From the NCBI GenBank assembly GCA_946615975.1, contig CAMOID010000003.1, positions 1 through 51,448 of the forward strand: DNA of 51,448 bases. Reading direction: 5' to 3'. The notes under the pieces were generated by a model, which was not told the origin of the DNA, did no database searches, and saw only the letters and a program-made list of their open reading frames with translations. The position numbers and the translations under genes are program-made. Positions 14,148-33,160 of this stretch are shown here, piece after piece. Every line of letters starts with the position of its first letter. Positions within the stretch are counted from its first letter, which is position 1. Source of the stretch: an uncultured Bacillales bacterium (GTDB lineage Bacteria > Bacillota_I > Bacilli_A > RF39 > UBA660).

Positions 14148-14172
14148 AACACAGAATTATCTGTGTTTTTTT
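14147..14172 (+). terminator. Rho-independent terminator
   Basis: AAACACAG / CTGTGTTT, loop AATTAT, then a T-run. Confidence 0.75.
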
Positions 14173-14240
14173 ATGTAAATCAAAAGGTAATTAAGTGTTA
14201 TATATTATTTATGTATACTATAATTAATATAGGTGATTAT

Positions 14241-17521: not shown

Positions 17522-18357
17522 TGAAAAAAGGTAAAATTATCGTTATCGAAGGAACAGATTGTAGTGGTAAAGAAACACAAAGTAAAATGTTAATTAATAG
17601 ATTAACTAGAAATGGTGAAAAAACACATTATTTGTGTTATCCAGATTATGAAACACCAACTGGTAAAATAATAGGTTTACCATACTTAGGTAAATCATAT
17701 ATTGCTGAAGACTTTATTAAAGCTACAAGAGAAAAAGTTATAGAAAGATTAGAAGAAAAAAATAAAGTAGTAGATGAATCTACAGTGGATACTATTATTG
17801 ATGCTGTAGCATCAGAATTTGGACATGGTTGGTTCCCTGAAGGAGCTCCACAAGTACCTGGAAAAATTGCTTCTTTATATTATGCTGCTGATCGTGCTTA
17901 TAATAAATATAAAATTGATGATTTAGTATCAAAAGGAGATAACGTTATACTTGATAGATATGTATATTCTAACTTTGCTCATCAAGGTGGAAAAATGGTT
18001 GATGAACAAGATAGAATTGATATGTATGAATGGTTATATGATTTAGAATTTAATAAAATGGGATTAAATGAACCTGATATTAAAATCTTCTTACATATGC
18101 CAACTGAATTTGCTGCATTATTAAAAGCATTAAGAGAAGAAAAATTAGATGAACATGAATTAAATGGTGATTATCTAAAAAGAGCAGAAAATGCATATAT
18201 TGAAGTAGCAAACAGATATGATTTTATTACAATAGAATGTGTAAGAGATATGAATGGACCTGTGTCTTTAGAAAACATAAAAACTAAAGAAGAAATAAGC
18301 GAAGAATTATATAAAATTGTTAGAGAAAAAATGGATCAAATAAAGTTGACTAAATAA
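17521..18357 (+). CDS. tmk: Thymidylate kinase-like protein (long form, 278 aa)
   Basis: IVIEGTDCSGKETQ P-loop and DRYVYSNFAHQG (DRY motif). Start ATG 17521 shares one nucleotide with the tdk stop (TAATG). There is an extra segment of about 60-70 aa between the P-loop and the DRY motif. Confidence 0.75.
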   Translation: MKKGKIIVIEGTDCSGKETQSKMLINRLTRNGEKTHYLCYPDYETPTGKIIGLPYLGKSYIAEDFIKATREKVIERLEEKNKVVDESTVDTIIDAVASEFGHGWFPEGAPQVPGKIASLYYAADRAYNKYKIDDLVSKGDNVILDRYVYSNFAHQGGKMVDEQDRIDMYEWLYDLEFNKMGLNEPDIKIFLHMPTEFAALLKALREEKLDEHELNGDYLKRAENAYIEVANRYDFITIECVRDMNGPVSLENIKTKEEISEELYKIVREKMDQIKLTK

Positions 18358-18371
18358 TAGTCAACTTTTTT
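18342..18371 (+). terminator. Rho-independent terminator
   Basis: GTTGACTA / TAGTCAAC, loop AATAA, then a T-run. Confidence 0.75.
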
Positions 18372-18403
18372 AAGTTTTACTTAACATTTTTAGTACATTT
18401 TGG

Positions 18404-18433
18404 TTGATAATATTGTATGTTTTATATTATAAT
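18404..18433 (+). promoter_or_regulatory. Candidate promoter of the T4SS operon
   Basis: TTGATA (18404-18409), 18-nt spacer, TATAAT (18428-18433). The AT-rich background makes this weak evidence. Confidence 0.3.
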
Positions 18434-18506
18434 TATTGTAGTGTATTATAGGGAAAACTAAAAATTAGTACCAATATATTTAAATATGACAATTGGAAGT
18501 GAGACT

Positions 18507-21188
18507 ATGTTATTAACCAGTGTTTTAAGTTGGGTTCAAACAGCTATTACAGAAGTATTTATGTTAGTATTCGATACTATTGTATATGGTATAGCAATTG
18601 CAGCTATATGTATTTTTAACGGTATTGCACGTATGGACTTTTTCTCAACAAAAGCCGGTGCATATATTTATTCAGATATTACTTATAGAGTGTATGGTAT
18701 TATTGGAATCATAATGATATTCTTCTTCACTTATCAATTGATAATGATGGTTATAAATCCTGATGGTAAAGAAGCTGGTGCTTCTTCTCAATTAGTAAAA
18801 AGACTTATTACTTCAATTATTATGATAGCTTTCTTCCCAACATTGTATCATTATATGGCAGTGTTCCAAGAACATGTATTAACTGAAGGTACAATATTTG
18901 GTATTGTTACAGGAACTGCTTCGGGTGGCGATTCTGATACGATGGGTAGAAATACAGCATTGATAGTTTATTTATCAATGTACCATCCAGTAGGTGGTGG
19001 ATATCAGTCACTGGTTGAAAATGCTGCTGATGAAAATGGTAATATTGTATTAAAAACGGCGGAAGAATGTGTGAAAGATAGTAATGCTTCTTTAGATACC
19101 TGTAAATTGTGGGTTGAAGCTGTTGATAATTTTGTAAATAAAAAGGAAAATGGTATTCTTGGTGGAATAACAGCATTTACTTTGAATTGGTCTTTGACTG
19201 AAACGATTTTTGAAGATGATGGTAGTGAATATTACTATGTAGTCATTGTTATATGTGGTGCTGTATTAGCATGGTTCTATATTTCGTATGCTATTGATTT
19301 AGGATATCGTACTGTTAAACTTGGATTCTTACAAATTATAAGTCCTGCTCCATTGGTAATTAGAATATTTGAAGGACCTGGTGGAGTAATGAAGAGTTCG
19401 AATGTATATGGCAAATGGAGACATCAATTGTTTGTTACATATGTTGAAGTCTTTGCAAGAGTTGCTATTGTTGCATTTGTAATTACTTTAATTCAATATG
19501 TTCCGATAATTGTGGCTGGTTTATTTGAAAATTTACTTATGAGTAGAGCATACATTGGCTTTGCTGTTGTAGCATTAATCTTTGGTATTTTTAAATTTGG
19601 AAAAGAATTACCAAAACTTGCTAAAGACTTATTCAATACAGGATCTGGTATATTTGATAACATTAATTGGAAACCAGGAGTTGGTCACAGACTTAAAGCT
19701 GGTACAGATGAAGTTGTTGGATTTGCGAAGAAAGCCGGTACATGGGCTGCTTCTAAAGTTATAAAAGGAGCTGCTACAGTAGGTGGTATTAAGAAAGTTG
19801 TAAGAGGAGTTAAAGGTGCTGCTGAAGGTATTAAGTTAGGCGCTGAAGCATTTAAGAAAGCAAATGGTTCTGCTAAAGGAACAAGTGCTAAAATTGGACA
19901 AGCTGTTGCAGGAGCTAAAGGTGCTGCAGCTGCATGGAATGCTTCTAAGAATATTTCTACCAAGACTCCATGGAATATAGCAAGACAAATAATGAATTCT
20001 GCATCATCAAATGCAGGTGGTTCTGTTAAAGCTCAATCTTTAGGTGAAATCGTTATGGATGGAGCTGACAAACTTGTTAATGGTGGAACAATGAATGCTA
20101 ACCAATTAAAAGTTGGTGAACTTGTTGCAGATAATAAAAAGATGGTTAATGGTGTTGATGACGAATTAGGAATCAGTGATAAAATTAAAAAGATTAAAGA
20201 ACGTGGACAACAAGCAGAAGCTGCATTCTACGCAGGCGGTGGAAAACCTGTTAAAGGTGCTAAACTTAATAGTAAGGGTGAAGCGATTGGCGATATTGAA
20301 TTTAGTTCATCAGATGAATTAAGAAAATATTACAAGGATATGGAAAAACAAGCTTACTTAGATACATTTAGAGAAAGACTTAATGAAGGTGTAGAAAGCA
20401 GAAACTTTGATGGCTTACTTAAAGCTTTAACTGGATCTGGTTTTGACACTTTAAGTGGCATTCAAGCTTTAGACTTACCAGATGGTTCTAAGGAAGCATA
20501 TGCTAAGAAGATATCAAGCAACTTTGATAGTTCATCTATTGAAAAAATTAATGAATTACTTGGTACTAGTTTTGATCCTGAAATGGCACTTCCAAAGATT
20601 AAAGCTCATAACAAAGAAATAGATTTAAAAAATAAAGATTTAGAAGCTGAAATTGCTGAATTAGGAAATGCAACGGTTGAGTCATTAACTGCTGCAATTA
20701 ATGAAGCTAAAGCTTCGGGCATGAAAAATTTCCAAGGACATGCTATTGGTGATAATATTAATGTTTCAGCTATGGCTAATCAAATATTTAATGATAATCA
20801 AACACGTATTGCTGAAAAGCAAGCACAAATTGAAACTAACAATTCAGGTAGAATTGATGAAAGCAATGCTGTTCACTTGTCTATGGATGATATTAATACA
20901 TTAGTTTCTAAAATTGGAAATAATGCTAAAAATGTATTCACAATTCCAGATAAGATTGAAATTAAAGATGGAGCTGGAAATCTTGTTTTAGATGCAGATG
21001 GAAAACCTGCTACAAGAGATCTTACTCCGGATGAAAAAAATCAAATGTTAGAACAAAATACTCAATTAATTAAAGATATAAGAGATATGATTAATACAAT
21101 GAGTTCTAATGGCGCTAGAGATATTCTAAGAGAATTCGAAGCTCCAAAAAATGAAAAATCAGATAATAAAGGCGATGCGAAAGCATAG
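18507..21188 (+). CDS. VirB6/TrbL-like polytopic T4SS channel protein (ConG/TcpH/Orf15 analogue) with a long soluble C-terminal region
   Basis: The N-terminal ~380 aa hold at least 6 hydrophobic helices separated by a large loop. The C-terminal ~500 aa are Lys/Ala/Gly-rich and coiled-coil-like. The gene is first in a VirB4/VirD4 cluster. Start set at ATG 18507, behind GGAAGTGAG. Confidence 0.7.
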   Translation: MLLTSVLSWVQTAITEVFMLVFDTIVYGIAIAAICIFNGIARMDFFSTKAGAYIYSDITYRVYGIIGIIMIFFFTYQLIMMVINPDGKEAGASSQLVKRLITSIIMIAFFPTLYHYMAVFQEHVLTEGTIFGIVTGTASGGDSDTMGRNTALIVYLSMYHPVGGGYQSLVENAADENGNIVLKTAEECVKDSNASLDTCKLWVEAVDNFVNKKENGILGGITAFTLNWSLTETIFEDDGSEYYYVVIVICGAVLAWFYISYAIDLGYRTVKLGFLQIISPAPLVIRIFEGPGGVMKSSNVYGKWRHQLFVTYVEVFARVAIVAFVITLIQYVPIIVAGLFENLLMSRAYIGFAVVALIFGIFKFGKELPKLAKDLFNTGSGIFDNINWKPGVGHRLKAGTDEVVGFAKKAGTWAASKVIKGAATVGGIKKVVRGVKGAAEGIKLGAEAFKKANGSAKGTSAKIGQAVAGAKGAAAAWNASKNISTKTPWNIARQIMNSASSNAGGSVKAQSLGEIVMDGADKLVNGGTMNANQLKVGELVADNKKMVNGVDDELGISDKIKKIKERGQQAEAAFYAGGGKPVKGAKLNSKGEAIGDIEFSSSDELRKYYKDMEKQAYLDTFRERLNEGVESRNFDGLLKALTGSGFDTLSGIQALDLPDGSKEAYAKKISSNFDSSSIEKINELLGTSFDPEMALPKIKAHNKEIDLKNKDLEAEIAELGNATVESLTAAINEAKASGMKNFQGHAIGDNINVSAMANQIFNDNQTRIAEKQAQIETNNSGRIDESNAVHLSMDDINTLVSKIGNNAKNVFTIPDKIEIKDGAGNLVLDADGKPATRDLTPDEKNQMLEQNTQLIKDIRDMINTMSSNGARDILREFEAPKNEKSDNKGDAKA

Positions 21189-21217
21189 TTAAATAGAATA
21201 AAAAGGAAGATGATGAT

Positions 21218-21535
21218 ATGGATCGATATTTAATTCCTGCAAACTCTAAAAGATCAATGCTGATCTTAAGTTTGTTTGCTCCAATTGATTTAGTTATTGC
21301 TGGTGTTGGTGGATTTATTACGGTAATCTTATTAATGATTATCAATATTGAAACCACTACAGACATTTTAATAGTTTTGACTCCGGTATTAATTTCATCT
21401 GCGATGGTAATACCGGTTCCAAATCATCGAAATGTTTGGCAATTAACTGCAAATGTTTTGTATTATTTTACAAATCAAAGAAAATATAGATGGAGAGGTT
21501 GGTGTATGTTACGTGGCAAAGAAGGAGAAGAATAG
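21218..21535 (+). CDS. PrgI/VirB3-like small two-TM T4SS protein
   Basis: 105 aa with two hydrophobic helices, located immediately upstream of the VirB4 ATPase, as PrgI-type proteins are in enterococcal and clostridial systems. Confidence 0.6.
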   Translation: MDRYLIPANSKRSMLILSLFAPIDLVIAGVGGFITVILLMIINIETTTDILIVLTPVLISSAMVIPVPNHRNVWQLTANVLYYFTNQRKYRWRGWCMLRGKEGEE

Positions 21536-22109
21536 TGCTCAATCTGCTAAAACTACTGAAGATTGGTTACCAATAATAGATATTAAAGGTAGCTATATTG
21601 AAGTAAAAGGTGCAAATGCACTAGAAGGTAATCAATATGTTACAGGAGTTAGAGTAGAACCAAAAAATATATTTATATTAGATGAAATAGTTCAAAGACA
21701 AACTATTAATGGATTAACTAATTTCTATAATACATTAGATTTTGAATTCTGGTTAATGTGCTGTGATAGACCTGTTGATATTAATTTATATAAATCTCAA
21801 CTAGAAATAATGTATTCAGAAGCTACTAGCCAACAACAAAGAAAATTAATAACAGAAGATATTAGAAAAGCAGATAAATTCATAGGACCTGAAATAAATG
21901 CGGTTGATACTGAATTTTATATATTATTTAAAGCACCAGTTAAACAAACAGAATTAATTCAAAAGAGAATTTCAAATATGATTTCTGGTTTAGCAAGTGC
22001 TGGGTTAAATTGTAGACAAATAACAGAAGAAGATATTAGAGTTTTATTAGATAGTATTTTTAATGATAGTGAAAGAGTAGAATTTGGAACGGTGATGAGC
22101 GATGTCTAG
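21513..22109 (+). CDS. VirB4-family ATPase, N-terminal domain fragment (separate ORF)
   Basis: TEDWLPIIDIKGSYIEVKGAN...VTGVRVEPKNIFILDE...FYNTLDFEFWLM matches the N-terminal domain of Gram-positive VirB4 proteins (PrgJ/TcpF/Orf16 type). The start is uncertain: GTG 21513 or ATG 21453. Confidence 0.65.
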   Translation: MAKKEKNSAQSAKTTEDWLPIIDIKGSYIEVKGANALEGNQYVTGVRVEPKNIFILDEIVQRQTINGLTNFYNTLDFEFWLMCCDRPVDINLYKSQLEIMYSEATSQQQRKLITEDIRKADKFIGPEINAVDTEFYILFKAPVKQTELIQKRISNMISGLASAGLNCRQITEEDIRVLLDSIFNDSERVEFGTVMSDV

Positions 22110-23895
22110 AAGTACAATGAAAAGCGAAATAGCACCTAAAGGGTTGAATTTTAAAATTAAAGAATTTGATATTGGTGGTAAATATGCTACTATCCTTACA
22201 GTATTAGAGTTTCCTAAAGAAATTGGTACTGGATATTTAAGTAATTTATCTTCAATACCTGGAGTTAAAGTTATTGTTAAACATACTCCAATCGAATTCT
22301 CAACAATGTCTAAAACTATCAATAAAGAAATAGCTGAATTAAAAACTGAATATCAAAAAGAAAACGATTTAACATTAAAAGAAAGATTAAGATTAGACTA
22401 TGAATCTATGGAACAATTTGTTCAAATGTTAGCTGCAACTGGATCAAAGATATTTGACTTCCAATTACATGTAATGATTACAGCTGATACTCAAGATGAA
22501 TTAGATTCAAGAAAAGTTGAAATTAAAAATTACATGATGGGTATTGGATTACGTGCTATACCTATGATGTTTGAACAAGAAAAAGTATTAAAGAGTATGA
22601 TACCTATCTTCCCTAAACAAGATGTAGAAGATAGAATTGGTATACCTGTTCCAGCACCTACATGTGCTGCTATGTATCCATTTGTATTCGATAGTATTAA
22701 AGACCCTGGATTATCAAGTTTATTAGGTATTGATTTTTCAGGTGGTGTAGTATTATTTAATCAATTTGCTTATCAACAAAGAAGTAGTGATAACAGACAT
22801 AATGCTAATATGATTATTTTAGGTACATCTGGTAGTGGTAAATCTACTGCTGCTAAGTTATTACTTAGAGGACATATTAGAAATGGATATCAAATTGTTT
22901 GTATCGATCCTGAAGGTGAATTAGAATTCATGGCTCAAAAGAATGAAGGATCATTCATTGATTTAGGTAAAGGTGGATCATATGGTATGATCAACCCATT
23001 AGAAATTGTTACAGATACAGATGAAGATACTCCTGGTGCAACTGCTGGTACTGCAGTACTTGCAAGCGCATTACAATCATTAAAAGCATTTATGAAATAT
23101 TATTCTCCAGAAATTGAAGATGATGTTTTACAAATGTTCAGTGAAGTAGTACAAGAAACATATAAGAGATTTGGTATCGATTTTGATACTAATTTCGAAA
23201 CTTTCCAACCTGAAAGCTTCCCAGTATTTGATGATGTTTACTCAACAATTAAAGGTAAATTATTATCAATGCCTGAAGCTACTCGTGAAAGAGATGTAAT
23301 GGAAAGACTTGAATTAAGAGTTAGACCATTCGTTAATGAATTAAGATATTATTTCAATGGTCATACAACTATTAATCCTGATACAAACTTTATTGTATTT
23401 AGTATTAAGAATGTTATGAACAGTGATGAAAATATTAGAAATGCATTATTCTTCAACATATTAAAATATGCATGGAGTTTATGCTTAGATAGAAGTAAGA
23501 ATACTGTAATGATGGTTGATGAAGCACATATCTTATTACAAGGAAGTAATGAATTAGGTGCTGAATACTTAGCACAAATGCAAAGACGTGCTCGTAAGTA
23601 CAATACAGGTACAATTATCATTACTCAACAACCTACAGACTTTGCTGCAGATAAAGTTATCATGCATGGTAAAGCTATTTTCGATAATGCTGCTTACTAT
23701 TTAGTAATGGGATTAAAGAAACAAGCTGTAGAAGATTTAAGTAAATTAATAGACTTAAATGAAAATGAAAAAGAAAGCATTAAAACGTATACACAAGGTG
23801 AAGCGTTATTCGTATGTGGATCTAGAAGAATGCGTATTAATATAATTTTAACTCAAGATGAGTTAGATTCCTTCGGTTCTGGTGGAGGACTATAA
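22102..23895 (+). CDS. VirB4-family T4SS ATPase, middle and C-terminal ATPase domains
   Basis: Walker A ILGTSGSGKSTAAK, CIDPEGE, Walker B VMMVDEAHILL, RRARKYNTGTIIITQQPTDF. Start ATG 22102 overlaps the upstream stop (ATGTCTAG), with GGTGA 8 nt upstream. Confidence 0.88.
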   Translation: MSRSTMKSEIAPKGLNFKIKEFDIGGKYATILTVLEFPKEIGTGYLSNLSSIPGVKVIVKHTPIEFSTMSKTINKEIAELKTEYQKENDLTLKERLRLDYESMEQFVQMLAATGSKIFDFQLHVMITADTQDELDSRKVEIKNYMMGIGLRAIPMMFEQEKVLKSMIPIFPKQDVEDRIGIPVPAPTCAAMYPFVFDSIKDPGLSSLLGIDFSGGVVLFNQFAYQQRSSDNRHNANMIILGTSGSGKSTAAKLLLRGHIRNGYQIVCIDPEGELEFMAQKNEGSFIDLGKGGSYGMINPLEIVTDTDEDTPGATAGTAVLASALQSLKAFMKYYSPEIEDDVLQMFSEVVQETYKRFGIDFDTNFETFQPESFPVFDDVYSTIKGKLLSMPEATRERDVMERLELRVRPFVNELRYYFNGHTTINPDTNFIVFSIKNVMNSDENIRNALFFNILKYAWSLCLDRSKNTVMMVDEAHILLQGSNELGAEYLAQMQRRARKYNTGTIIITQQPTDFAADKVIMHGKAIFDNAAYYLVMGLKKQAVEDLSKLIDLNENEKESIKTYTQGEALFVCGSRRMRINIILTQDELDSFGSGGGL

Positions 23896-23913
23896 TATCT
23901 GCGAGGTGAGTTT

Positions 23914-26205
23914 ATGAGAAAAGGTAAAAATAATAAGATGTTATTGCTAAAAGATATTGCAAAAGTACTTTTAGCAATAACACTTTTTTCAGTTATAGTA
24001 TATGTTCCAGATAAGGTAAATGGAGCATCATTCGAATATAAAGATTTTGATTTTGATAAATTTCAAGCTAATAGAAATTTCTTCTGGGATGGAAATTGTA
24101 AAGAAGGAGATACTGAATGTAAAAATAAAGTATTAGAATCTCAAAAGAAATTTTATAAAAAGTTATATAAGACTTTAGCTGCTTATGATAAAAAACAAGA
24201 TAAAGCAGGAGATAGATTACATATTAATGATAATATTATTCTTGAAACTGTTTTCTTTGAATTAACACATGATGTATTTAAAGATGATGGTACAGATTAT
24301 GAAAATAAAGTTGGATCTAATGATCCTGGTTATTCAGTAAATGAAGAATCAGATGGATCTGGTGCTGCAGATATTGATTATTCAACAGTTCCTGAAGATT
24401 ATTTTGAAACTGAAACAGATACTCTAGAAACATTAGCAGATAATATGATTGCATATGAAACTATTTGTTGGGGTGATAGAGGACCTGCTACTGAAGAAAA
24501 AGATGATGAAGGTAATATTCATTATTCATGTCCTGAAGGTGGACAAGTATACAACAAAAAATGTGTTGATAAATTAAGCGATAATGAATTAGGTTTCTGG
24601 GAATATTTCGCATCTAAATTAATGCATGATACAGGATTAGGAAGACTAACTGGTCCAATATTCTTCTTAGGAAAAGCTGTAGATGATCAAGCTTACTATG
24701 ATTGCAAGGCAGTAGAAGGATATGCAGATGGTACTAGATACGAATATACAGATGATAGATATGTAAGTACAGATAGATATTTTGATTTCTTAAAAGATAA
24801 TCTATATTTTGATAAAAAAGCTCATTTACAAAAATTCTTTAGAAAAGATGTATTAGAAAAAGCAACTGAAAAATATGGAACTCCAGTTAAGTGTATGACA
24901 TCTAATATATGTGATGAATCACTTGAAGCAATTGATGGAGGATATGAAGAATTCTATGGAAATATAGTTGCTGATAGATTAGATATTATTGAGTATATTA
25001 TTTCTAATTTAAGACAATATGGAATAGATATACATTATATGGATGATTTTAATTCGGATTTAAATGATATAACTAATACTCAACAAAGAAAGAGTTTCTA
25101 CTGGCCAATTGGTAGCAATGAAACTGAAGAAAGAAATGGAAGAGTATTTGCTGATAAAGATCCAGCAAGTACTGAAATTATTAGACAATTCGGAACTAAT
25201 GCAAATCCAAGAACTGGAGAAATGCAAATGCATTATGGTATAGATATTGCTGGTGTAGAAGGTTCTACAAATGTTATATCTGTATACTCTGGTACAGTTT
25301 ATTCGGTATATAGTTCATGTACTAAAGGTGATTATACTTGTAATGAAGGATATGGTAATATGATTATCATTTCTCATCCAAATGGAGATTATTCAGTATA
25401 CGCACATTTAGCATCAATTGAATCATATATTGTTACTGGATATGATGTTGTTAAAGGTGAAGTAATTGGTAAAGTAGGAGCAACAGGTGATGTTGATACT
25501 TCTAAACCATGTTTACATTATGAATTAAGAGTAGGTGGTAATTCAGTAGATAATGCTCAAAATCCAGAAGATAATACTGACCCAAGTGATCCAAGACCTA
25601 CAATTCCATCTGGAGATTTCTCAGTTCATGAAACTTCATTAACAAAAGAACAATTCTGTTCTGGATTAAGAAATTATTGTAATAATCATGAATGTGGTTC
25701 ATTCTCAGTAAATTGTGAAACAGTATATGATTCATCAATTGATAATAATGTTAACCCTGAATTAGTTGTTGCAAGAGCTATGTGTGAAGGATTCTCACCT
25801 GGTGGTTCTACATATAATTATTGGGGTATTGGATGTTCTAATACTGGTGGTGGTAGAGACTGCCATTCATATTCAAGTTTATCTGATGGTATTCGTGGTT
25901 TTGCATCAGTTGTAGCTAAATATAATACCGCAAGCGATATGATGAAGAAATATGCTTATATTGGAGCATATTGGTATAATCCTGGTTCTTGGCCAACAGG
26001 TGGATGTATTTACTTTAATTACATTAAACAATATATGAGTAATGGTAGACAATCTACTGTAACTAATGTATGTAATAGTGGTAATTATTGTGATACAGCA
26101 GGTGGTGTTTGTACACCAACTACTGATGAAGACCAAACTGCATATGCTACATGGCAAGTTGCAAATAAGATGGGTCCAATTAGAGCTAATATATGGGGAT
26201 TATAG
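23914..26205 (+). CDS. Secreted or anchored cell-wall hydrolase: M23 (LytM) peptidase domain plus a C-terminal glucosaminidase/muramidase-like domain
   Basis: N-terminal anchor helix. M23 motifs HYGIDIAG, GNMIIISHPNGDYSVYAHL and LHYELRVGG. The C-terminal ELVVARAMCEGFSPGGSTYNYWGIGC resembles the FlgJ/LytD-type glucosaminidase catalytic region. RBS GAGGTGA. Confidence 0.8.
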   Translation: MRKGKNNKMLLLKDIAKVLLAITLFSVIVYVPDKVNGASFEYKDFDFDKFQANRNFFWDGNCKEGDTECKNKVLESQKKFYKKLYKTLAAYDKKQDKAGDRLHINDNIILETVFFELTHDVFKDDGTDYENKVGSNDPGYSVNEESDGSGAADIDYSTVPEDYFETETDTLETLADNMIAYETICWGDRGPATEEKDDEGNIHYSCPEGGQVYNKKCVDKLSDNELGFWEYFASKLMHDTGLGRLTGPIFFLGKAVDDQAYYDCKAVEGYADGTRYEYTDDRYVSTDRYFDFLKDNLYFDKKAHLQKFFRKDVLEKATEKYGTPVKCMTSNICDESLEAIDGGYEEFYGNIVADRLDIIEYIISNLRQYGIDIHYMDDFNSDLNDITNTQQRKSFYWPIGSNETEERNGRVFADKDPASTEIIRQFGTNANPRTGEMQMHYGIDIAGVEGSTNVISVYSGTVYSVYSSCTKGDYTCNEGYGNMIIISHPNGDYSVYAHLASIESYIVTGYDVVKGEVIGKVGATGDVDTSKPCLHYELRVGGNSVDNAQNPEDNTDPSDPRPTIPSGDFSVHETSLTKEQFCSGLRNYCNNHECGSFSVNCETVYDSSIDNNVNPELVVARAMCEGFSPGGSTYNYWGIGCSNTGGGRDCHSYSSLSDGIRGFASVVAKYNTASDMMKKYAYIGAYWYNPGSWPTGGCIYFNYIKQYMSNGRQSTVTNVCNSGNYCDTAGGVCTPTTDEDQTAYATWQVANKMGPIRANIWGL

Positions 26206-26214
26206 GAGGATAAT

Positions 26215-26757
26215 ATGAGTAGAAGAAAATTAAATGATTCAGAAAAAAAAGTATTATCTTTTTGGGTTATCCTTGCTATTGTAATTATTTCAGGATTACT
26301 AGTTTTTAAACTAGTAGCTCCTGAAAAATTTGATAAATTTTTTGGACTAGGTGAATATGATAGAAAGTATACACTTGTAAAAGATAGAACACGTTATTAT
26401 ACTGTATCAAATGCACTTGTTAAATATTATTCATATTTAAATGAAAAAAATAGTGAAGCAATTTTTAACATTTATAATGATACATATAAAACTAACAAAG
26501 GAATAACAAGTCCTTCAAATATTAGTTTTTCTGATGATGCTGAAAAACAAAATTTAACATTTAATACTAGATTAATGTGCAAGAAAAAACTTGATAAAGG
26601 TATTTATAGTTTCTATGTAACAGGATTTGAATCAAAAGCAAATGTATCTGGTAGATTAGATAATAAATACTATGAAGTAATTTTAGATGATAATCAATTT
26701 GTATTTAGTATTCAACCAATAGATGAAAAATCATTTGGAGGTGAATGCCATGAGTAG
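26215..26757 (+). CDS. N-terminally TM-anchored T4SS accessory protein (VirB8-like candidate)
   Basis: One TM helix (FWVILAIVIISGLLVF), then ~140 aa arranged as helices followed by beta strands. RBS AGGAGGA. Confidence 0.45.
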   Translation: MSRRKLNDSEKKVLSFWVILAIVIISGLLVFKLVAPEKFDKFFGLGEYDRKYTLVKDRTRYYTVSNALVKYYSYLNEKNSEAIFNIYNDTYKTNKGITSPSNISFSDDAEKQNLTFNTRLMCKKKLDKGIYSFYVTGFESKANVSGRLDNKYYEVILDDNQFVFSIQPIDEKSFGGECHE

Positions 26758-27289
26758 AGTTATTGAATATATTAAAAAGAATTATTTATTTGTTGGAATT
26801 ATATTATTAGTTATTATTCTTTTAGTAGTACTAGTTACAGTAAGACTAAATAAAAAAGAATTAACTTGGGAACCTATTGAAGGTGAAGTATCATATGATA
26901 TTAAAAGACATGAAGCAAATGAATATAAAATAATTTCTGTTGAAGATCAAGATATATCTATAGCTTATTATAAGAATTGGGTTTATTTATTAATTAATAA
27001 TCCTGAAGAAGCTTATACAATGTTATCTAAACGTTCTTTAAAAGAATATCCTACATATGAAAAATTTAAAGAATGGGTTGATAGATATGTTACAGTTAAA
27101 ACTAAAGATAGTACTTTAACTGGATATAAATATGAAGAAAAAGGTGGACACAACGAAATAGTTGTTTCTACATCAGAACATATGAGATATCGTTTTAACG
27201 AATATTCTGTATGGAATTATAAAGTTGATATTATTGGACAAGAAAGAGTAATTGAAAAAACAACAACAATTACTACTAAGAAAAAATAA
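26750..27289 (+). CDS. N-terminally TM-anchored T4SS accessory protein (second VirB8-like candidate)
   Basis: Start ATG 26750 lies behind GGAGGTGA and overlaps the upstream stop (ATGAGTAG). One TM helix, then a ~140-aa alpha+beta domain and a Thr/Lys tail. Confidence 0.45.
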   Translation: MSRVIEYIKKNYLFVGIILLVIILLVVLVTVRLNKKELTWEPIEGEVSYDIKRHEANEYKIISVEDQDISIAYYKNWVYLLINNPEEAYTMLSKRSLKEYPTYEKFKEWVDRYVTVKTKDSTLTGYKYEEKGGHNEIVVSTSEHMRYRFNEYSVWNYKVDIIGQERVIEKTTTITTKKK

Positions 27290-27327
27290 TATAAAATAAA
27301 AAAATAAAGTGAAAGGAGGTGCGTCTT

Positions 27328-28992
27328 ATGCCAGTACCTGTTATTATTGCCGGTGGAGCTGCTGCTGCCGCTGCTGCCGGAGGTGGAGCTGCTGCTGGTG
27401 GTGCTGCTGCTGCCGGTGGAGCTGCTGCCGCTGCTGGTGGAGCTGCTGCTGCTGGTGGTGGAGCTGCCGCTGCTGGTGGTACTGCTGCCGCTGCTAGTGG
27501 TACTGCTGCCGCTGCTAGTGGAACTGCCGCTGGTGCTGCAACTGCGACTGGTGCCGGAGCTGCAACTGCAACTGGTACCGGAGCTGCAACTGCAACTGGA
27601 GCTGGAACTGCTGGTGCTGCAACTGGAACTGGAGCTGGATCAACTGCTGCTTCTCAAGCGGGAACTCAAATTGCTCGTCAAGGATTACAAGAAGGTGCAA
27701 AACAAGGAGTAAAAGAAGCGGGCAAAGAAGCTGCTAAGGAAACAGCAAAGGAAAGTGCAAAAGAAGCTGCAAAAGAAAGTGCAAAAGAAACAGCCAAAGA
27801 AAGCGCTAAAGAAAGTGCAAAAGATACTGTTAAAGAAGAAGCTAAAGAGCAAGCAAAAGAGCAAGCTAAGGAACAAGCAAAAGAGCAAGCAAAAGAACAA
27901 GCTAAGGAAAAAGAAAAAGAAGATTTAAAAAAGAAGCTTGAAGATGAGCTTGAAGATCAAATGAATCAAAATGATGAAGATGATGATGACGCACCTCAAG
28001 AAACTACTTCTGGTGGTGTTTCTGATGGAAGAGTTCCATATGATAGAAATCAATCACAAGGAAGCGGACAAAGAAGAACAACTCCTAATAGACAAGAAGG
28101 GGTAGTTAATAATAATGGCTCTCAAGGAGCTCAATCAAATGATAATGAATTAAAAACTGACGAAGAAAAGAAAGCAGAACAAAAGCAAAAAAAGGCTGAA
28201 CAAAAAAATCAAACTAAAGAACAAAAGAAAGAAGCCAAACAACAAAAGAAAGAAGAAAAGAAAGAAAGCGGTTCTGGTGGAGGAATCGTAAGTCGTTTCA
28301 TAAGTAGAAAAATTATGGCTTTTGTTATTAGTGGTATTCTTGGATTTGTTGGATTAATGATGCTTATTATAATTATTTTGTTGCCAACTTTAATAATTGC
28401 TGGTGCAATTATGGAAGTTACTGATTGGATTAAAGATGGAGTAAATGCAATTGGTGAATTTGTTGGAGATTTAATTGGTGGAATAGGTTCTGATGATTTA
28501 GTTATAGAAATAGATCCATCGGATATTCCAGAAGATTTTGATTTATCTAAAAATAATCCTGCATGGGATAAAGCAACTCCAAATGGACGAGCAATTGCTG
28601 TTGCTGCTGTTAATATTGTTAGATTAAATAAACCATATTTATATGGAGGACATCCAACTGGGCCATATCCTGATGGTATACCAGATACTGGTCTTGATTG
28701 TGCTGGTTTTGTACAAGCATCTATTTGGACTGGTATTGGAAGAAATCCAGGATATTTAACAACACAAGCTATATCTGATGGTATAGGTTCTACGTTTATG
28801 CAAATTGATTGTAGTGATTTACAAGTAGGAGATATTGGATTAAAACGTAGAGGTGGAAGTGTAGATGGTAATACAAATCACACAGGTGTTTATATCGGAA
28901 ACAATCTGTGGGCGCATGCTGCTGGTAAAAAGACAGGTATGGTAATAAGTACTTATTCTAATTTTAAAATATGTTTAAGATATAATGGGTGA
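27328..28992 (+). CDS. NlpC/P60 cell-wall endopeptidase with a ~320-aa low-complexity N-terminal region and a central TM segment
   Basis: C-terminal GLDCAGFVQASIW (catalytic Cys) and NHTGVYIGNNLWAHAA (His). A hydrophobic stretch (FVISGILGFVGLMMLIIIILLPTLIIAGAIM) precedes the domain. Start ATG 27328 is 6 nt after AAGGAGGTG. Confidence 0.85.
   Translation: MPVPVIIAGGAAAAAAAGGGAAAGGAAAAGGAAAAAGGAAAAGGGAAAAGGTAAAASGTAAAASGTAAGAATATGAGAATATGTGAATATGAGTAGAATGTGAGSTAASQAGTQIARQGLQEGAKQGVKEAGKEAAKETAKESAKEAAKESAKETAKESAKESAKDTVKEEAKEQAKEQAKEQAKEQAKEQAKEKEKEDLKKKLEDELEDQMNQNDEDDDDAPQETTSGGVSDGRVPYDRNQSQGSGQRRTTPNRQEGVVNNNGSQGAQSNDNELKTDEEKKAEQKQKKAEQKNQTKEQKKEAKQQKKEEKKESGSGGGIVSRFISRKIMAFVISGILGFVGLMMLIIIILLPTLIIAGAIMEVTDWIKDGVNAIGEFVGDLIGGIGSDDLVIEIDPSDIPEDFDLSKNNPAWDKATPNGRAIAVAAVNIVRLNKPYLYGGHPTGPYPDGIPDTGLDCAGFVQASIWTGIGRNPGYLTTQAISDGIGSTFMQIDCSDLQVGDIGLKRRGGSVDGNTNHTGVYIGNNLWAHAAGKKTGMVISTYSNFKICLRYNG
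27349..27654 (+). repeat. GC-rich imperfect triplet-repeat tract (GCT/GCC/GGT/GGA/ACT) encoding an Ala/Gly/Thr low-complexity region
   Basis: Reads as (GCT)n-GGT/GGA blocks, two copies of ACTGCTGCCGCTGCTAGTGG, and repeated GGAGCTGCAACTGCAACTGG units. My hand count for 27361-27420 is 43 G+C out of 60. Several reading frames on both strands are open here. Confidence 0.9.
27694..27924 (+). repeat. In-frame 12-nt periodic repeats encoding (A-K-E-x)n
   Basis: The protein reads AKQGVKEAGKEAAKETAKESAKEAAKESAKETAKESAKESAKD..., followed by five EQAK/AKEQ units at 27841-27906 (GAGCAAGCAAAA / GAACAAGCTAAG). Confidence 0.85.
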
Positions 28993-29000
28993 TGTGTGAT

Positions 29001-29648
29001 ATGAAAAAAGTATTAAGTTTATTTATAGTAATTTCATTATTTATTTTTATGCCTGTAGTTAAAGCAGAAAATTTTAGTAGATTTACTATTAGAACATCTG
29101 TTTCAAATAGTATAAATATTAATGAATTATCATCTATTATTGTATATATGGCTATACCAGGTGAAGATGATTTTAGAGAAATAGAATTAAATAGAAGAGA
29201 TCTATTTAACTATGAAACATTTGATATGCCTGATGGAAGTGAATTTGATAATGCCATTGTATATGGTGATAAAATTGGAAAATATAATATAAAAGGTGAA
29301 TTAACAAAAAAAGAAGGACCTAATGTAGCTACATTATATTTAACTGTACATCTAAATGGAGAAAATCCAATGATTACAACAACTACTACAACTACAACAA
29401 CTACAAAATCTCAACAAGTTGTAGCAGACGATGATATTATAATTGTAGATGATGATGGTAATGTAAAAACTACTGCATCAAATGATATTCCAACAGTAGT
29501 AATCACATCATCTCAATCTTCAATTAGTAGTGCTGCTAGAAATAGACTAGAACTATATAAATATGTATTAATGATAGTTGTAGCTTTACTTGTCATTGTT
29601 GGATTAATGATAGTTGTAAAGATTATAAGAACTTCTAACTTAATGTAG
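29001..29648 (+). CDS. Secreted surface protein with a poly-Thr stalk and a C-terminal TM anchor
   Basis: Signal peptide MKKVLSLFIVISLFIFMPVVKA/ENF, a ~100-aa globular part, T10 (ACA/ACT x10 at 29376-29405), a Ser-rich segment, a C-terminal hydrophobic helix and RTSNLM. No LPXTG motif. Confidence 0.6.
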   Translation: MKKVLSLFIVISLFIFMPVVKAENFSRFTIRTSVSNSININELSSIIVYMAIPGEDDFREIELNRRDLFNYETFDMPDGSEFDNAIVYGDKIGKYNIKGELTKKEGPNVATLYLTVHLNGENPMITTTTTTTTTTKSQQVVADDDIIIVDDDGNVKTTASNDIPTVVITSSQSSISSAARNRLELYKYVLMIVVALLVIVGLMIVVKIIRTSNLM

Positions 29649-29712
29649 CAAAAAAATAATATATATACTATAATTTTAATAGATAATAGTAAAAGAAAGT
29701 GAGGGGATAATC

Positions 29713-32493
29713 ATGAAATTAAATGTTAAAGTTACATCAAAAGATTTAACTATTTTTATCATATTTTCAGTTATATTATTTTATGTATGTTCTATAACTG
29801 TACTTAACATTATGTCTATGGTTAACGAAGGCGAATTTGCTGGTTTAAATCCATTTCCTGCATTATTACCTCCTTATGTTCTATTTACTGTAATTATTTT
29901 TGTATGTGTAGAAATAGGTATTATTTTAAGCGTAAAAGATACTATCTTTGACTTTGGTGATGGAATTGGTTTAACAATCGGTGAAAAAGAATCTAAAGGT
30001 TATTCAAGATGGTTTACTGAAAAAGAAATGAAGAAAGCCTACAAAGTATATAAAGTAGGTGTTAAAGATAAAGATGCAGATCAAGCTGGTGTAGTATTTA
30101 TCAATGATGGTAAAGATATGTGGGTTGATGATTCTGAAAACCATACATTAGTTATTGGTACTACTGGATCAGGTAAAACTTCTGCAGTAGTTAATCCATT
30201 AATCTATAGTTTAATTAAACATAGAGAATCAATGGTTATAACTGACCCTAAAGGTGAAATTTATTCTGGATTTGCTAATTTACTTAAAGATAGAGGATAT
30301 AAAATAGTTGTATTAAACTTCCGTAATCCTAATTTAGGTAATGCATGGAATCCATTAACATTACCTTATAGATTATATAAAGAAGGTAATGTTGATAAAG
30401 CATCCGAATTAATTGATGACGTTGCATCAAATATTATTAAAGATAAAAAATCTCAAGATCCATTCTGGGAAAATTCATCAGCTGACTACTTTGCTGGTTG
30501 TGCTCTTGGATTAATGGAAGATGGTACTGAGGAAGAATGTAATATTAATTCAATTAACTATATGACTACTGTCGGTGAAGAAAAGATAGGTAGTAAAACG
30601 TTTATTCAAGAATATTTCACTATGAAAGGTGAAAATTCAAATGCATATGTATTTGCATCAAATACAATTAATTCACCTAATGAAACAAAAGGTGGTATTT
30701 TAGCTGTATTTAGATCAAAAATAAGATTATTTGCATCACGTGAACAATTATCTGAAATGTTATCACATTCAGACTTTGATATGGAAATGATTGGTAAAGA
30801 ACCAACTGCTGTATTTATTGTTATACATGATGAAAAGACAACATACCATGCTTTAGCAACAATCTTTGTTAAACAATGTTATGAAACATTAATATCTGTT
30901 GCACAAGCTAATGGTGGACCACTTCCAGTTAGAACAAACTTTATTCTTGATGAGTTTGCTAATATGCCAGCGTTGAAAGATGTTACAACAATGGTTACTG
31001 CTGCTCGTTCAAGACAAATAAGATTCACATTCATTATCCAAAACTTCTCACAATTAAATGAAGTATATGGTAAAGAAGATGCTGAAACAATTAGATCTAA
31101 CTGTCAAAACTTAATATATATCTTAACTACTGAGTTATCTGCTCTTGAAGAAATATCTAAGTTATGTGGTGAAGTAAAGAGTAAGAAAGATGATAAGACT
31201 GAATCTCATCCATTAATTACTGTATCTGATTTACAAAAATTAAAGATGAATGAAGTTATTATTTTAAGAAATAGATTACATCCATTTAAGACTGTATTAA
31301 AACAAGGATTTAATACAGACTGGGGTGATTCAGAATTCGATAAACATGCTGAATTCGTAGAAAGAGAAAAAACAGAAATCAAATATTTTGATTTAAAGAA
31401 TTTTGTTACTGTTAGAAAACGTAGTAAAGGTGAAGATATCACTCAACAAAAATCTCCATTTGGAGGAATGGGTGGTAATCCATTCGGTGGAGGAGCTAGT
31501 CCATTTGGTGGAGGAGCTAATCCATTTGGCGGTGGAGGTGGAGCGAAGATTCCATCATTTGAAGAATTCATGGCTCAACGTAATAAAGAAAAAGCTGAAA
31601 GAGCTAAAATGGAACCTGTTAAACCAGATATGGGTAAACCAAATTTTGATATCGATGATTTAGTTAAGAGAATAGATGCTAAGATAGCAGAATTAGAAGA
31701 AGAACAAAGAAGAGAAGAAGAGGAACAAGCAAGAAAACTTGGAGGGTCTGCTGCACCTTCAGGAGCACCTGCTATTCCAGTTAATCCTTTAGATGTATCA
31801 TTAGATACTAAAGAACCTTCTCAACCATTTGTTGAAAAGAAACCATTTATTGATCCAATTATGGATGAGGAAATATCTGAAGTTCCAGTTAATAATACAG
31901 GTATTAAAACATTTGAAGATATTATTAGAGAAGCAAATGCACCTGCTATGGAAACTAAGAAGGAAGAACCTAAACCATCTGTAATGATTAGTACTCCAAT
32001 TGATGAAGTACCAAATACTAGAGTATCTGATGTTGATGATAATGTTTCAAATAAACCAACATCTCCTACAAGTGCTCCTGATACAACTCCTCCAAAAGAA
32101 GTTGATAAAACTAAGTTATCTGGAATTGTTGATCCAACAAATATGACATTTGAATCATTTATGAATAGTAATGGAGCAAATATTCCAACTAATAATACTA
32201 TTCCAAGTAATATAAATGTTAATCAAGCATCAACTGTTTCAACTATGGAAGTACCTGATGCTCCAGTAACACCAGATGTACCAACACAAGTTGTTAACAA
32301 TGATACAGTTGTTACACCAATTATTCATCAACCACAACAACAAGTTGTTATTAATACTACAGTTAAAAAACCAATTCAAACTCAAGTACAAGTTGATACA
32401 GGTGTTAACAATATCAAAGTTGATACTCAATCACAAGTTGTTCCACAACAACCTGAAGATGAAGATTTCTTTGATGATTTCTTTGAGGAATAA
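29713..32493 (+). CDS. VirD4/TraG-type type IV coupling protein with a ~350-aa disordered C-terminal extension
   Basis: Two N-terminal TM helices, Walker A VIGTTGSGKTSAVVNP, DPKGE, DPFWENSSADYF, Walker B NFILDEFANMP, RSRQIRFTFIIQNFSQL. RBS AGTGAGGGG. Confidence 0.88.
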   Translation: MKLNVKVTSKDLTIFIIFSVILFYVCSITVLNIMSMVNEGEFAGLNPFPALLPPYVLFTVIIFVCVEIGIILSVKDTIFDFGDGIGLTIGEKESKGYSRWFTEKEMKKAYKVYKVGVKDKDADQAGVVFINDGKDMWVDDSENHTLVIGTTGSGKTSAVVNPLIYSLIKHRESMVITDPKGEIYSGFANLLKDRGYKIVVLNFRNPNLGNAWNPLTLPYRLYKEGNVDKASELIDDVASNIIKDKKSQDPFWENSSADYFAGCALGLMEDGTEEECNINSINYMTTVGEEKIGSKTFIQEYFTMKGENSNAYVFASNTINSPNETKGGILAVFRSKIRLFASREQLSEMLSHSDFDMEMIGKEPTAVFIVIHDEKTTYHALATIFVKQCYETLISVAQANGGPLPVRTNFILDEFANMPALKDVTTMVTAARSRQIRFTFIIQNFSQLNEVYGKEDAETIRSNCQNLIYILTTELSALEEISKLCGEVKSKKDDKTESHPLITVSDLQKLKMNEVIILRNRLHPFKTVLKQGFNTDWGDSEFDKHAEFVEREKTEIKYFDLKNFVTVRKRSKGEDITQQKSPFGGMGGNPFGGGASPFGGGANPFGGGGGAKIPSFEEFMAQRNKEKAERAKMEPVKPDMGKPNFDIDDLVKRIDAKIAELEEEQRREEEEQARKLGGSAAPSGAPAIPVNPLDVSLDTKEPSQPFVEKKPFIDPIMDEEISEVPVNNTGIKTFEDIIREANAPAMETKKEEPKPSVMISTPIDEVPNTRVSDVDDNVSNKPTSPTSAPDTTPPKEVDKTKLSGIVDPTNMTFESFMNSNGANIPTNNTIPSNINVNQASTVSTMEVPDAPVTPDVPTQVVNNDTVVTPIIHQPQQQVVINTTVKKPIQTQVQVDTGVNNIKVDTQSQVVPQQPEDEDFFDDFFEE
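31453..31545 (+). repeat. Tandem 21-nt in-frame repeats encoding PFGGG(A/G)(S/N)
   Basis: CCATTCGGTGGAGGAGCTAGT / CCATTTGGTGGAGGAGCTAAT / CCATTTGGCGGTGGAGGTGGA, preceded by a degenerate copy (SPFGGMGGN). Confidence 0.85.
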
Positions 32494-32522
32494 AAAAAGG
32501 AAATTAAATTTTCCTTTTTTTT
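32493..32522 (+). terminator. Rho-independent terminator ending the T4SS block
   Basis: A-run, AGGAAA...TTTCCT hairpin, then T8. Confidence 0.65.
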
Positions 32523-32553
32523 ATTTATATAATTTTATATAATAGTAATGTGA

Positions 32554-33150: not shown

Positions 33151-33160
33151 AGGTATTTAT

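Follow-up and report, generated by a model that had tools for sequence, protein, structure and literature searches.

A probably fixed and vertically inherited chromosomal type IV secretion system in AT-rich Bacilli of the gut and rumen

In Patescibacteria, also called the candidate phyla radiation (CPR), type IV secretion systems (T4SSs) are chromosomal and mostly lack a relaxase (PMC12102498), and in the Saccharibacterium Southlakia epibionticum the T4SS is essential for epibiotic growth (PMC10633639). Here we describe a T4SS gene cluster in a stretch of 51,448 nucleotides from an uncultured Bacillales bacterium (contig CAMOID010000003.1 of GenBank assembly GCA_946615975.1), which we call the window. 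The cluster spans positions 18486-32493 and has 10 open reading frames (ORFs), all on the + strand and spaced by 64 nt or less or by short overlaps, between tmk (17473-18357) and a VTT/TVP38-family gene (32554-33150). A prediction made from the sequence without database searches had described a co-oriented, tightly packed block here, and both that description and its coordinates are right; it counted eleven ORFs where there are 10. We think it likely that the cluster encodes a working T4SS, derived from a monoderm conjugation system, that has a fixed place in the chromosome and is passed on vertically in AT-rich gut and rumen Bacilli. The original prediction had favored a domesticated T4SS over an integrative and conjugative element (ICE) or the remnant of one, and this is supported by synteny, co-divergence with core genes, the ratio of nonsynonymous to synonymous substitution rates (dN/dS), the G+C content of third codon positions (GC3), and the lack of mobilisation genes in cis.

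The likeness to the Patescibacteria T4SS appears to be functional and architectural, and it may be convergent. Both are monoderm conjugation-derived systems that are chromosomal, widespread in a lineage with reduced genomes, and without a relaxase in the cluster, and the several VirB2-like pilin genes (PF18895) of Patescibacteria are also found in relatives of the window. In contrast to Patescibacteria, the host here belongs to the Bacilli, VirB4 is made as two polypeptides, there are at least two wall hydrolases, and in the sub-clade of the window pilin genes are missing from the locus. The S. epibionticum T4SS has no recognisable coupling protein (PMC10633639), whereas here VirD4 is kept and is strongly conserved. 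A co-opted relaxase-less monoderm T4SS is known from Patescibacteria, and the data support a second reduced-genome lineage with its own traits.

The Gram-positive conjugative T4SSs (pBMB68, the Trs/Tra systems of pSK41 and pIP501, Prg of pCF10, and Tcp of pCW3) share with the window the core order from the VirB6-like gene to VirB4, a hydrolase and small transmembrane (TM)-anchored proteins, as well as a VirD4 of the CD1115 family and an NTF2-fold VirB8/TcpC-like protein. On pBMB68, the order is MobP3 relaxase, VirD4 (CD1115 family), a hypothetical protein, TrbL, PrgI, a 227-aa ORF, a DUF87 VirB4, and NlpC/P60. Unlike these systems, to which its VirB4 is ~30% identical, the window has no relaxase, replication, partition, ssb, or topoisomerase genes, its VirD4 is at the far end of the operon and not beside a relaxase, the VirD4 tail is clade-specific, and the system is chromosomal, fixed, and co-diverging with core genes.

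The ICEs of mycoplasmas (NF045975, Mbov_0397) come from related hosts, as the Mollicutes sit within the Bacilli in GTDB. They provide the best-scoring VirB4 family, and three of the window ORFs are collinear with its one profile. However, their VirB4 is a single fused polypeptide, the window scores below the family cut-off (344 vs 590 bits), and those elements are mobile, whereas the window has no transposase and does have cell-wall hydrolases. The minimal streptococcal type IV-C T4SS (for example, S. suis 89K), which we liken to the window by description only, has a Gram-positive VirB1-like/VirB4/VirB6/VirD4 set and is also implicated in protein export. It is found on mobile islands with a relaxase and an integrase and has a patchy distribution, whereas the system in the window keeps its synteny in at least several hundred genomes that each represent a species. 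A survey of Mollicutes ICEs required both an integrase and a relaxase (PMC12205969), and therefore a cluster of the window's type would not register in it. Full-text literature searches returned no description of a conserved system of this kind for uncultured Bacilli of the RF39 type or lineages related to them.

Relatives of the block occur in at least 509 stretches of species-representative genomes, where each GTDB species is represented by one genome. The best 80 of these are all from metagenome-assembled genomes (MAGs) of human, mouse, rabbit, ruminant, and other guts, and the labels on their records, all for uncultured organisms, read Bacilli, Tenericutes, Firmicutes CAG:582, or Erysipelotrichales. 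There are more than 7000 VirB4 homologues, and among the 120 matches listed they are 593-600 aa long and 73-94% identical. Contigs of related genomes reach 1.19-1.27 Mb, and contigs of 1.2-1.3 Mb may be near-whole genomes. Some bins (L008, L013, L024, L030, L036, and others) are labelled Muribaculaceae, Phocaeicola vulgatus, or Clostridium sp. and have the locus content of the Bacilli clade, which suggests that they are mislabelled or contaminated.

The core order of VirB6, VirB3, the N-terminal part of VirB4 (VirB4-N), its ATPase part (VirB4-C), one or more hydrolases, small anchored proteins, and VirD4 is constant across the relatives. The original prediction had proposed comparing the interval from tmk to TVP38 in related genomes. 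On the right side, the junction VirD4-(rhodanese)-TVP38-rmuC is present in at least 22 genome loci, down to 68% VirB4 identity, and VirD4-TVP38-rmuC is still seen where RmuC identity has fallen to 56%. On the left side, infC-rpmI-rplT-(tdk)-tmk is common to the window's sub-clade, and in L001-L003 and other relatives the cluster sits between different housekeeping genes. When metagenome contigs were picked by RmuC alone, the T4SS was directly upstream in ~19 of the ~37 that had enough upstream sequence; 5 contigs keep TVP38-rmuC without the T4SS, and one group (60% RmuC identity) has rmuC in a different context. The position of the T4SS is therefore widely, but not universally, conserved. TVP38 and rmuC (32554-34324 in the window) follow VirD4 in about 40 related loci, often behind a small rhodanese-like gene, an adjacency that may be plain synteny or a functional link.

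Whether the cluster follows the host in its descent, also part of what had been proposed, was examined through protein distances. VirB4 distances are correlated with those of IF3 (Mantel r = 0.92), RmuC (0.86), L20 (0.71), and TVP38 (0.68), all with p = 0.0005, so that VirB4 co-diverges with IF3, L20, and RmuC, and with mean distances of 0.168 and 0.170, VirB4 and L20 are equally conserved. We calculated dN/dS against the closest genome (L004), a rumen MAG whose VirB4 is 95% identical, and obtained 0.087 for VirB4-C, 0.084 for VirB4-N, 0.15 for VirB3, and 0.18 for VirD4. The ATPases and VirB3 are thus under purifying selection (0.08-0.18), while the envelope-exposed proteins have values of 0.3-0.6, including 0.51 for a Thr-rich stalk protein. 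The T4SS genes have a GC3 of 0.125, as extreme as that of the flanks (0.100); for the window it is ~10%. Synteny, co-divergence, low dN/dS, and GC3 together indicate long residence, vertical descent, and purifying selection, and argue against a recent insertion as well as a decaying remnant.

The second of these, an ICE remnant that has lost its relaxase and integrase and is heading for deletion, would fit with the absence of mobilisation genes, the presence of VirB4 in separate ORFs, and a G+C content in the cluster slightly above that of the flanks. However, the G+C excess is confined to codon positions 1 and 2, with a host-like GC3, and the VirB4 split is clade-wide and is also found in an intact conjugative plasmid. 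In addition, 10/10 ORFs are intact, as the original prediction had pointed out in arguing against decay, the ATPases and VirB3 are under the purifying selection described above, the same block and junctions are found at only 68% VirB4 identity, and VirB4 co-diverges with core genes. We consider a remnant extremely improbable.

Conservation is uneven along the cluster. The VirB6-like protein is 49% identical to that of L004 although IF3 is 99.5% identical, and there is no nucleotide alignment to L004 at 19748-21192 (the VirB6 C-terminus) and at 27701-28686 (the low-complexity N-terminal region of the NlpC/P60 hydrolase), while the DNA flanking these two gaps is 83-88% identical. This suggests either cassette-like replacement or strong diversification of these two regions.

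We searched for mobilisation functions in the window and beyond it. Pfam and NCBIfam profiles were run on the window proteins, with ORFs within 42399-51416 outside the profiled set, and the profiled ORFs of the 51-kb window include no relaxase, recombinase/integrase, transposase, replication, or partition gene. No direct repeats flank the cluster, the inverted repeats of the region are short, AT-rich, and unremarkable, and the only RNA gene in the window is a tRNA-Arg, 18 kb off and behind core genes. A further 10 kb to the left could be followed on an 85-kb contig with an identical Mur ligase, which is very likely from the same or a near-identical genome, and these have no mobile-element family. 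The original prediction of no relaxase, recombinase, replication, or partition genes nearby and no direct repeats therefore holds for the profiled ORFs of the window, which has 18 kb on each side of the cluster, and for 10 kb to its left; a relaxase and integrase with att repeats just outside the boundaries, which it had named as evidence that would overturn it, were looked for and not found. One ORF of 391 aa (14163-15338) was considered as a hidden relaxase or integrase and rejected, as it has a GYSEGA alpha/beta-hydrolase motif and no Pfam match.

The relatives give the same result. Precomputed Pfam annotation around four of them contains no relaxase, representatives of all recurrent neighbour families in the relatives have no relaxase-like match, and the loci in odd contexts are flanked by housekeeping genes. 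In 2.47 Mb of related loci, phmmer searches with the relaxase exemplars MobP3, TcpM, Nes (MOBQ), and MobV had 0 matches, as did searches with RCR Rep, RepA_N, TopB, ArdC, ParM, and IS257; the positive controls VirD4 and VirB4 had 79 and 100 matches. Single queries with pSK41 TrsD, pCW3 TcpC/D/E/H, and pSK41 TrbL had no matches in the loci and are therefore too distant to inform. There is no near-identical DNA in 72,556 plasmids, and the nearest plasmid VirB4, from Bacillus thuringiensis pBMB68, is 30% identical. Four IMG/VR contigs carry the block (L169-L172) with a pilin-VirB6-VirB3-VirB4-VirD4 layout and 64-65% identical VirB4; although classed as viral, they probably come from host DNA or from the vicinity of prophages. 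Patchy presence of the block in plasmids or ICEs of relatives would also have spoken against domestication, and what we see is a conserved, syntenic spread with only these four IMG/VR contigs. Of the features of a conjugative element, namely a linked relaxase, a recombinase/att or replication module, and mobility, we found none, while of those of a monoderm T4SS we found VirB4, a coupling protein, a VirB3-like protein, a VirB8-like fold, and peptidoglycan hydrolase.

The anatomy of a Gram-positive conjugation-type channel is well supported by the individual genes (Table 1). Profile searches did not place the ORFs called VirB6, VirB3, and VirD4 in unrelated families; the calls of VirD4 and VirB3 were upheld, as were those of the VirB4 ATPase and the NlpC/P60 hydrolase, and that of VirB6 has support through orthologues.

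Table 1. Genes and signals of the T4SS cluster, in window coordinates.
Feature	Position	Strand	Evidence
Terminator-like hairpin, end of tdk-tmk unit	18342..18368	+	Scanner match, 11-pair stem, T-run
Promoter-like site TTGATA-18-TATAAT	18404..18433	+	Best + strand match of the region, 11/12 positions, 53 nt 5' of first T4SS gene
VirB6/TrbL-like polytopic membrane protein, 900 aa	18486..21188	+	Topology, gene position, profile matches of orthologues
VirB3/PrgI/TcpE-like two-TM protein, 105 aa	21218..21535	+	TcpE E 7.8e-4 (below cut-off); NF045975 positions 6-96
VirB4 N-terminal-domain protein, separate ORF	21513..22109 (ORF opens 21453)	+	NF045975 positions 87-279, E 2e-16
VirB4 ATPase, 597 aa, Walker A GTSGSGKST, Walker B MMVDEAH	22102..23895	+	Pfam AAA_10, P-loop_TraG, DUF87
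Membrane-anchored M23 wall hydrolase, 763 aa	23914..26205	+	Peptidase_M23 3.4e-21; PDB M23 matches aa 418-549
VirB8/TcpC-like protein (candidate), N-terminal TM and NTF2-fold domain, 180 aa	26215..26757	+	AlphaFold2, mean pLDDT 86
Second TM-anchored protein, predicted NTF2 fold, 179 aa	26750..27289 (ORF opens 26723, 188 aa)	+	AlphaFold2
NlpC/P60 hydrolase, 557 aa	27319..28992	+	NLPC_P60 2.9e-5 at aa 438-547
Signal-peptide protein, Thr-rich stalk, C-terminal TM anchor, 219 aa	28989..29648	+	Hydrophobic aa 8-26, 192-210
VirD4 coupling protein, 926 aa	29713..32493	+	T4SS-DNA_transf PF02534 7e-58, TrwB_AAD_bind 1e-26, TraG-D_C 1e-24
AT-rich hairpin then T-run, likely terminator	32494..32526	+	Directly after VirD4 stop; read in sequence

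The VirB6-like protein has a conserved multi-TM N-terminal region of ~400 aa with a large loop and a hypervariable C-terminal region of ~480 aa (nt 19748-21188). There are five to six hydrophobic segments in all, including aa 25-43, 65-93, 252-270, 326-344, and 350-368. The protein in the window has no Pfam or NCBIfam match of its own, but among its orthologues TrbL is matched by 4/42 and TrbL_4 by 3/42, with a best E of 1.2e-8, and the gene is upstream of VirB3-VirB4 as in pBMB68. An hhalign comparison with one plasmid TrbL was weak (E 0.005, probability 7%). We also considered a VirB2-like pilin hairpin at the N-terminus, since 7/42 orthologue N-termini match PF18895 (hhalign E 0.015); this was not supported, as a pilin HMM built from the relatives matches 0 VirB6 orthologues and 0 window proteins. 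For the VirB3-like protein, the orthologue matches to TcpE (16/57) and PrgI (10/57) are sub-threshold but consistent, and hhalign with a PrgI-family protein of pBMB68 has a probability of 75% and an E of 2.6e-5.

VirB4 is divided between two genes. The best curated family for the ATPase is NF045975, the Mycoplasma ICE VirB4, of which it covers positions 295-891 with 344 bits, below the 590-bit cut-off; the score for the CD1110 family is 178 bits, also below cut-off, and pSK41 TrsE matches it at 7e-39 (phmmer). The preceding ORF likely starts at the GTG at 21513, which gives 198 aa instead of the 218 aa from 21453, a start we chose based on orthologues of 184-199 aa. Since the ORFs of 105, 198/218, and 597 aa are collinear on one NF045975 profile of 894 positions, we assign them as VirB3, the VirB4 N-domain, and the VirB4 ATPase.

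The original prediction had taken the VirB4 split as an interruption of an otherwise intact gene set, which is not what the relatives show. VirB4-N and VirB4-C occupy separate ORFs that differ in frame and overlap by 1, 4, or 8 nt in 83/83 loci, and the VirB3-like ORF is always in yet another frame, so the three-ORF arrangement is conserved. The 227-aa ORF upstream of VirB4 on pBMB68 is homologous to VirB4-N of the window (E 4e-15). In an exhaustive search of 1.84 billion representative proteins, VirB4-N homologues are mostly stand-alone proteins of 200-240 aa, and a few are the N-termini of proteins of 800-890 aa. Because the ORFs are separate throughout the clade and in a conjugative plasmid, the split is not decay but an old, normal architecture of this branch of T4SSs. 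An alternative genetic code was rejected as the cause, as in-frame TGA codons are absent from the ORFs, and those of the VirB4 region use three different frames with ATG/stop overlaps. Having VirB4 as distinct N-domain and ATPase polypeptides is the ancient and normal state in one Gram-positive branch of T4SSs.

Of the predicted M23 and glucosaminidase hydrolase, the M23 part stands, both by profile and by PDB matches. The glucosaminidase-like C-terminal domain could not be confirmed: it is Cys-rich with no PDB or Pfam match, 1/13 orthologues has a weak Glucosaminidase match (E 0.007), and the domain does not resemble the Phage_lysozyme2 domain that is found in more distant orthologues. The NlpC/P60 protein consists of a low-complexity N-terminus rich in Ala/Gly/Thr and Lys/Glu, a TM segment at aa 328-361, and the C-terminal NlpC/P60 domain. 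The Ala/Gly/Thr run is encoded at 27330-27660 by GCT/GGT-rich repeats with a 9-nt period and 42% G+C in a 25% G+C genome, a tract that could be prone to length variation.

Two TM-anchored proteins had been proposed as VirB8 candidates. For the first, of 180 aa, the top PDB match of the predicted structure in Foldseek is pCW3 TcpC (3ub1; probability 0.98-0.99, E 0.02). VirB8, TraE, and TrwG come next, and the TM-scores are low (~0.35), with no match at E <= 0.001. The second model has a pLDDT of 72 overall and >82 in the folded domain, and its Foldseek matches are generic NTF2-like folds, not specifically VirB8, so that of the two candidates the first has TcpC/VirB8 as its best match and the second appears only generically NTF2-like. 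The predicted surface stalk protein was borne out, with a signal peptide, a Thr-rich stalk, and a C-terminal anchor. It matches no Pfam or NCBIfam family, and the same slot in relatives is taken by analogous anchored proteins or lipoproteins (families c12 and c46).

VirD4 is unambiguously identified, with 299.6 bits to NCBIfam NF045973 (the CD1115 family, cut-off 250) in addition to PF02534, and with TrwB as its PDB match. It is made up of two N-terminal TM segments, an NTPase domain (aa 110-498), a variable low-complexity linker of ~400 aa, and an acidic-aromatic tail, EDEDFFDDFFEE (nt 32455-32490, aa 915-926). A tail of DD[EQA][FY][FY]DDFF plus acidic residues ends 55/55 VirD4 orthologues from loci L001-L079, one of them with DAFF, while the linker before it has ~250-450 aa and varies freely in length and sequence. 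A second motif, K-I/V-N-I/V-D-x-D-S-x-I/V-V, is often found ~15 residues upstream of the tail. Outside the VirD4 orthologues, [FY][FY]DDFF is not found in the 2.47 Mb of related loci, and it is absent from the coupling proteins of pBMB68, pSK41, and pCW3. The invariance of the tail implies a conserved docking partner.

Most relatives have an extra module directly upstream of VirB6 (for example, L001 3100-6200, L079 2-5800, and L081 26-6813). It includes a T2SSE-family ATPase (c40, Pfam 8.7e-28), two polytopic membrane proteins, and 2-6 genes of a small two-TM family, of which 14/36 match PF18895 (T4SS pilin, VirB2-like) with a best E of 9.6e-8. There are also larger proteins whose C-terminal pilin domain is joined to NlpC/P60, an amidase-like domain, or a different extracellular domain, as well as short pilin-like or pseudopilin-like proteins and a protein of ~340 aa, none with Pfam support. 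We tried Tad-pilus labels for the upstream families c7, c5, c11, c30, and c31 and dropped them for lack of Pfam support; only the T2SSE ATPase c40 is solid. With the pilin HMM of the relatives and tblastn, no pilin or pilus-ATPase module was found at the locus in the window's sub-clade, nor in the 51 kb plus 10 kb to the left.

From these components, we propose the following model. Transcription from the promoter-like site (18404) would cover the ten genes as one predicted operon. The VirB6-like and VirB3-like proteins and the two NTF2-fold (VirB8/TcpC-like) proteins would form the membrane channel and scaffold, energised by VirB4 in the form of an N-domain and an ATPase polypeptide, and the M23 and NlpC/P60 hydrolases would open the peptidoglycan locally. 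VirD4 would recruit a cytoplasmic substrate, probably with the invariant [FY][FY]DDFF tail as the docking site for a conserved partner. The fast-evolving VirB6 C-terminus, hydrolase N-terminus, Thr-rich stalk, and NTF2 proteins may contact something variable outside or on another cell.

We infer that moving its own element is no longer the task of the system, which instead has a contact-dependent function throughout the lineage. Our preferred guess, which could as easily prove wrong as right, is the export of protein or other cargo that is not the element's own DNA during contact with neighbouring cells, a role that has also been proposed in Patescibacteria. A role other than self-transfer is favored because no locus has a relaxase beside VirD4, an organelle is favored over a gene-exchange device because of the high conservation and fixed position, and a role in contact is favored because the surface parts evolve fast, like interaction surfaces. 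The relaxase-less chromosomal T4SS of Patescibacteria, as the best analogue, also favors a contact-dependent role. RF39-type gut Bacilli are described as having small genomes and many auxotrophies (PMC6784871, PMC10868615), without fatty-acid, amino-acid, or vitamin synthesis (PMC6784871), and a role in a dependent lifestyle is favored for this reason.

The main alternative is that this is a working DNA conjugation pore, in which a relaxase encoded elsewhere or on mobilisable elements feeds VirD4, leading to exchange of chromosomal DNA or of elements, comparable to ICE-dependent chromosomal transfer in mycoplasmas. Among systems with an established function, the nearest are conjugative plasmids that share the gene order of the cluster. 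VirD4 exceeds the cut-off of CD1115, a conjugative family, and the VirB4 pieces best match the Mycoplasma ICE family NF045975. The invariant acidic-aromatic VirD4 tail also brings to mind TraD of the F plasmid, whose acidic C-terminal tail is where the relaxosome protein TraM docks, and the DNA recombination gene rmuC is a conserved neighbour, although this adjacency may be plain synteny. Conjugative systems usually have a relaxase adjoining VirD4, yet none is next to VirD4 in ~165 related loci, and there are no linked ssb, topoisomerase, anti-restriction, or partition genes. VirB4 conservation at the level of a ribosomal protein, together with a fixed position, would also be unusual for a gene-exchange device. 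We regard DNA transfer as rather unlikely, and place it second after the export of cargo.

A device for DNA uptake or release, like Helicobacter ComB or the gonococcal genetic island, would suit an organism with a reduced genome and a chromosomal T4SS that lacks a relaxase, since such a cell may need nucleotides or DNA from outside, and the pilin genes and pilus ATPase alongside the cluster in relatives would suit it as well. However, ComB-type uptake systems function without VirD4, whereas VirD4 is highly conserved here and has an invariant tail, gonococcal DNA release requires a relaxase, and nothing in the locus points to DNA handling. We therefore consider uptake or release very unlikely.

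Several points weigh against our preferred interpretation of a domesticated, contact-dependent system. The CD1115 family of VirD4 is named for conjugative elements, and the sequence relatives of known function are all conjugative. Atypical relaxases exist, and searches with single-sequence exemplars have limited sensitivity and miss distant relaxases. The relaxase searches covered the window, 10 kb to its left, and the related loci rather than whole genomes, so a relaxase, oriT, or integrase may be present elsewhere. About half of the RmuC-anchored relatives have no T4SS at that site. Because the window's sub-clade has no VirB2-like pilin or pilus-ATPase genes beside VirB6, its apparatus may differ or be partly encoded elsewhere. 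The VirB6 identity is transitive, with its support coming only through orthologues, and the case for VirB8 is modest, as it comes from structure predictions whose Foldseek statistics are weak.

The guts of humans, mice, rabbits, and ruminants commonly harbour uncultured Bacilli with small genomes, and to our knowledge nothing is known about how auxotrophic gut Bacilli obtain the compounds they cannot make. With the conservation of a ribosomal protein, a fixed place in the chromosome, and no mobility genes left, the T4SS makes a strong candidate for the key interaction device and would be a concrete target for co-culture cultivation, imaging, and genetics. It would also offer a second natural experiment, beside Patescibacteria, on conjugation machines turned to other uses. 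More tentatively, and on balance we doubt it, the T4SS could be an organelle that defines the lineage and without which auxotrophic gut Bacilli with small genomes could not live on or from other cells. If so, the strategy of Patescibacteria would have a second and independent case inside the Bacillota, and part of the abundant uncultured gut 'RF39/Tenericutes' lineages would be contact-dependent symbionts or parasites of gut microbes or host cells. The invariant VirD4 tail would then be a handle for finding the cargo or adaptor, and in most of the clade the T4SS is accompanied by VirB2-like pilins, wall hydrolases fused to a pilin domain, and a module with a pilus ATPase.

Two terminators had been predicted to bound the cluster. 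The upstream hairpin was found by the scanner, while the downstream AT-rich hairpin was read by eye and is sub-threshold, the scanner being silent because the stem has fewer than three G-C pairs. The promoter-like site is a match to consensus only, and such sites showed no overall enrichment. An Rfam scan upstream of the operon found no regulatory RNA.

The window is very AT-rich (21-34% G+C), and nearly all of its genes are on the + strand; the only sizeable gene on the minus strand encodes a Sel1/TPR-repeat protein of 505 aa (2043-3560). The standard bacterial code appears to fit, with no long ORF broken by TGA and with TAA or TAG stops in 44/45 ORFs. TGA is nearly unused as a stop, the sole one being at 28990-28992, where it overlaps the next start; in some uncultured Bacilli, reassigned sense codons have been reported. 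Core genes on both sides, as predicted, were identified with Pfam and NCBIfam. To the left are a Mur ligase, an SDF transporter, an O-antigen-ligase-like protein, glycosyltransferases, RelA/SpoT, and a P-type ATPase, and, nearer the cluster, the alpha/beta-hydrolase-like ORF, infC-rpmI-rplT, tdk, and tmk. To the right are VTT/TVP38, RmuC, FtsE, FtsX, a PcsB-like M23 protein, CdsA, RseP, and a ParE/GyrB-like protein. The rplT gene (16326-16871) encodes an L20 with a C-terminal extension of ~65 aa; the NCBIfam matches of this L20 are 'L20/unknown domain fusion' and 'sunset domain variant', and the L20 orthologue in L165 matches Rho_N/HeH. The dTMP kinase encoded by tmk has 294 aa, of which the kinase profile covers aa 130-256 only.

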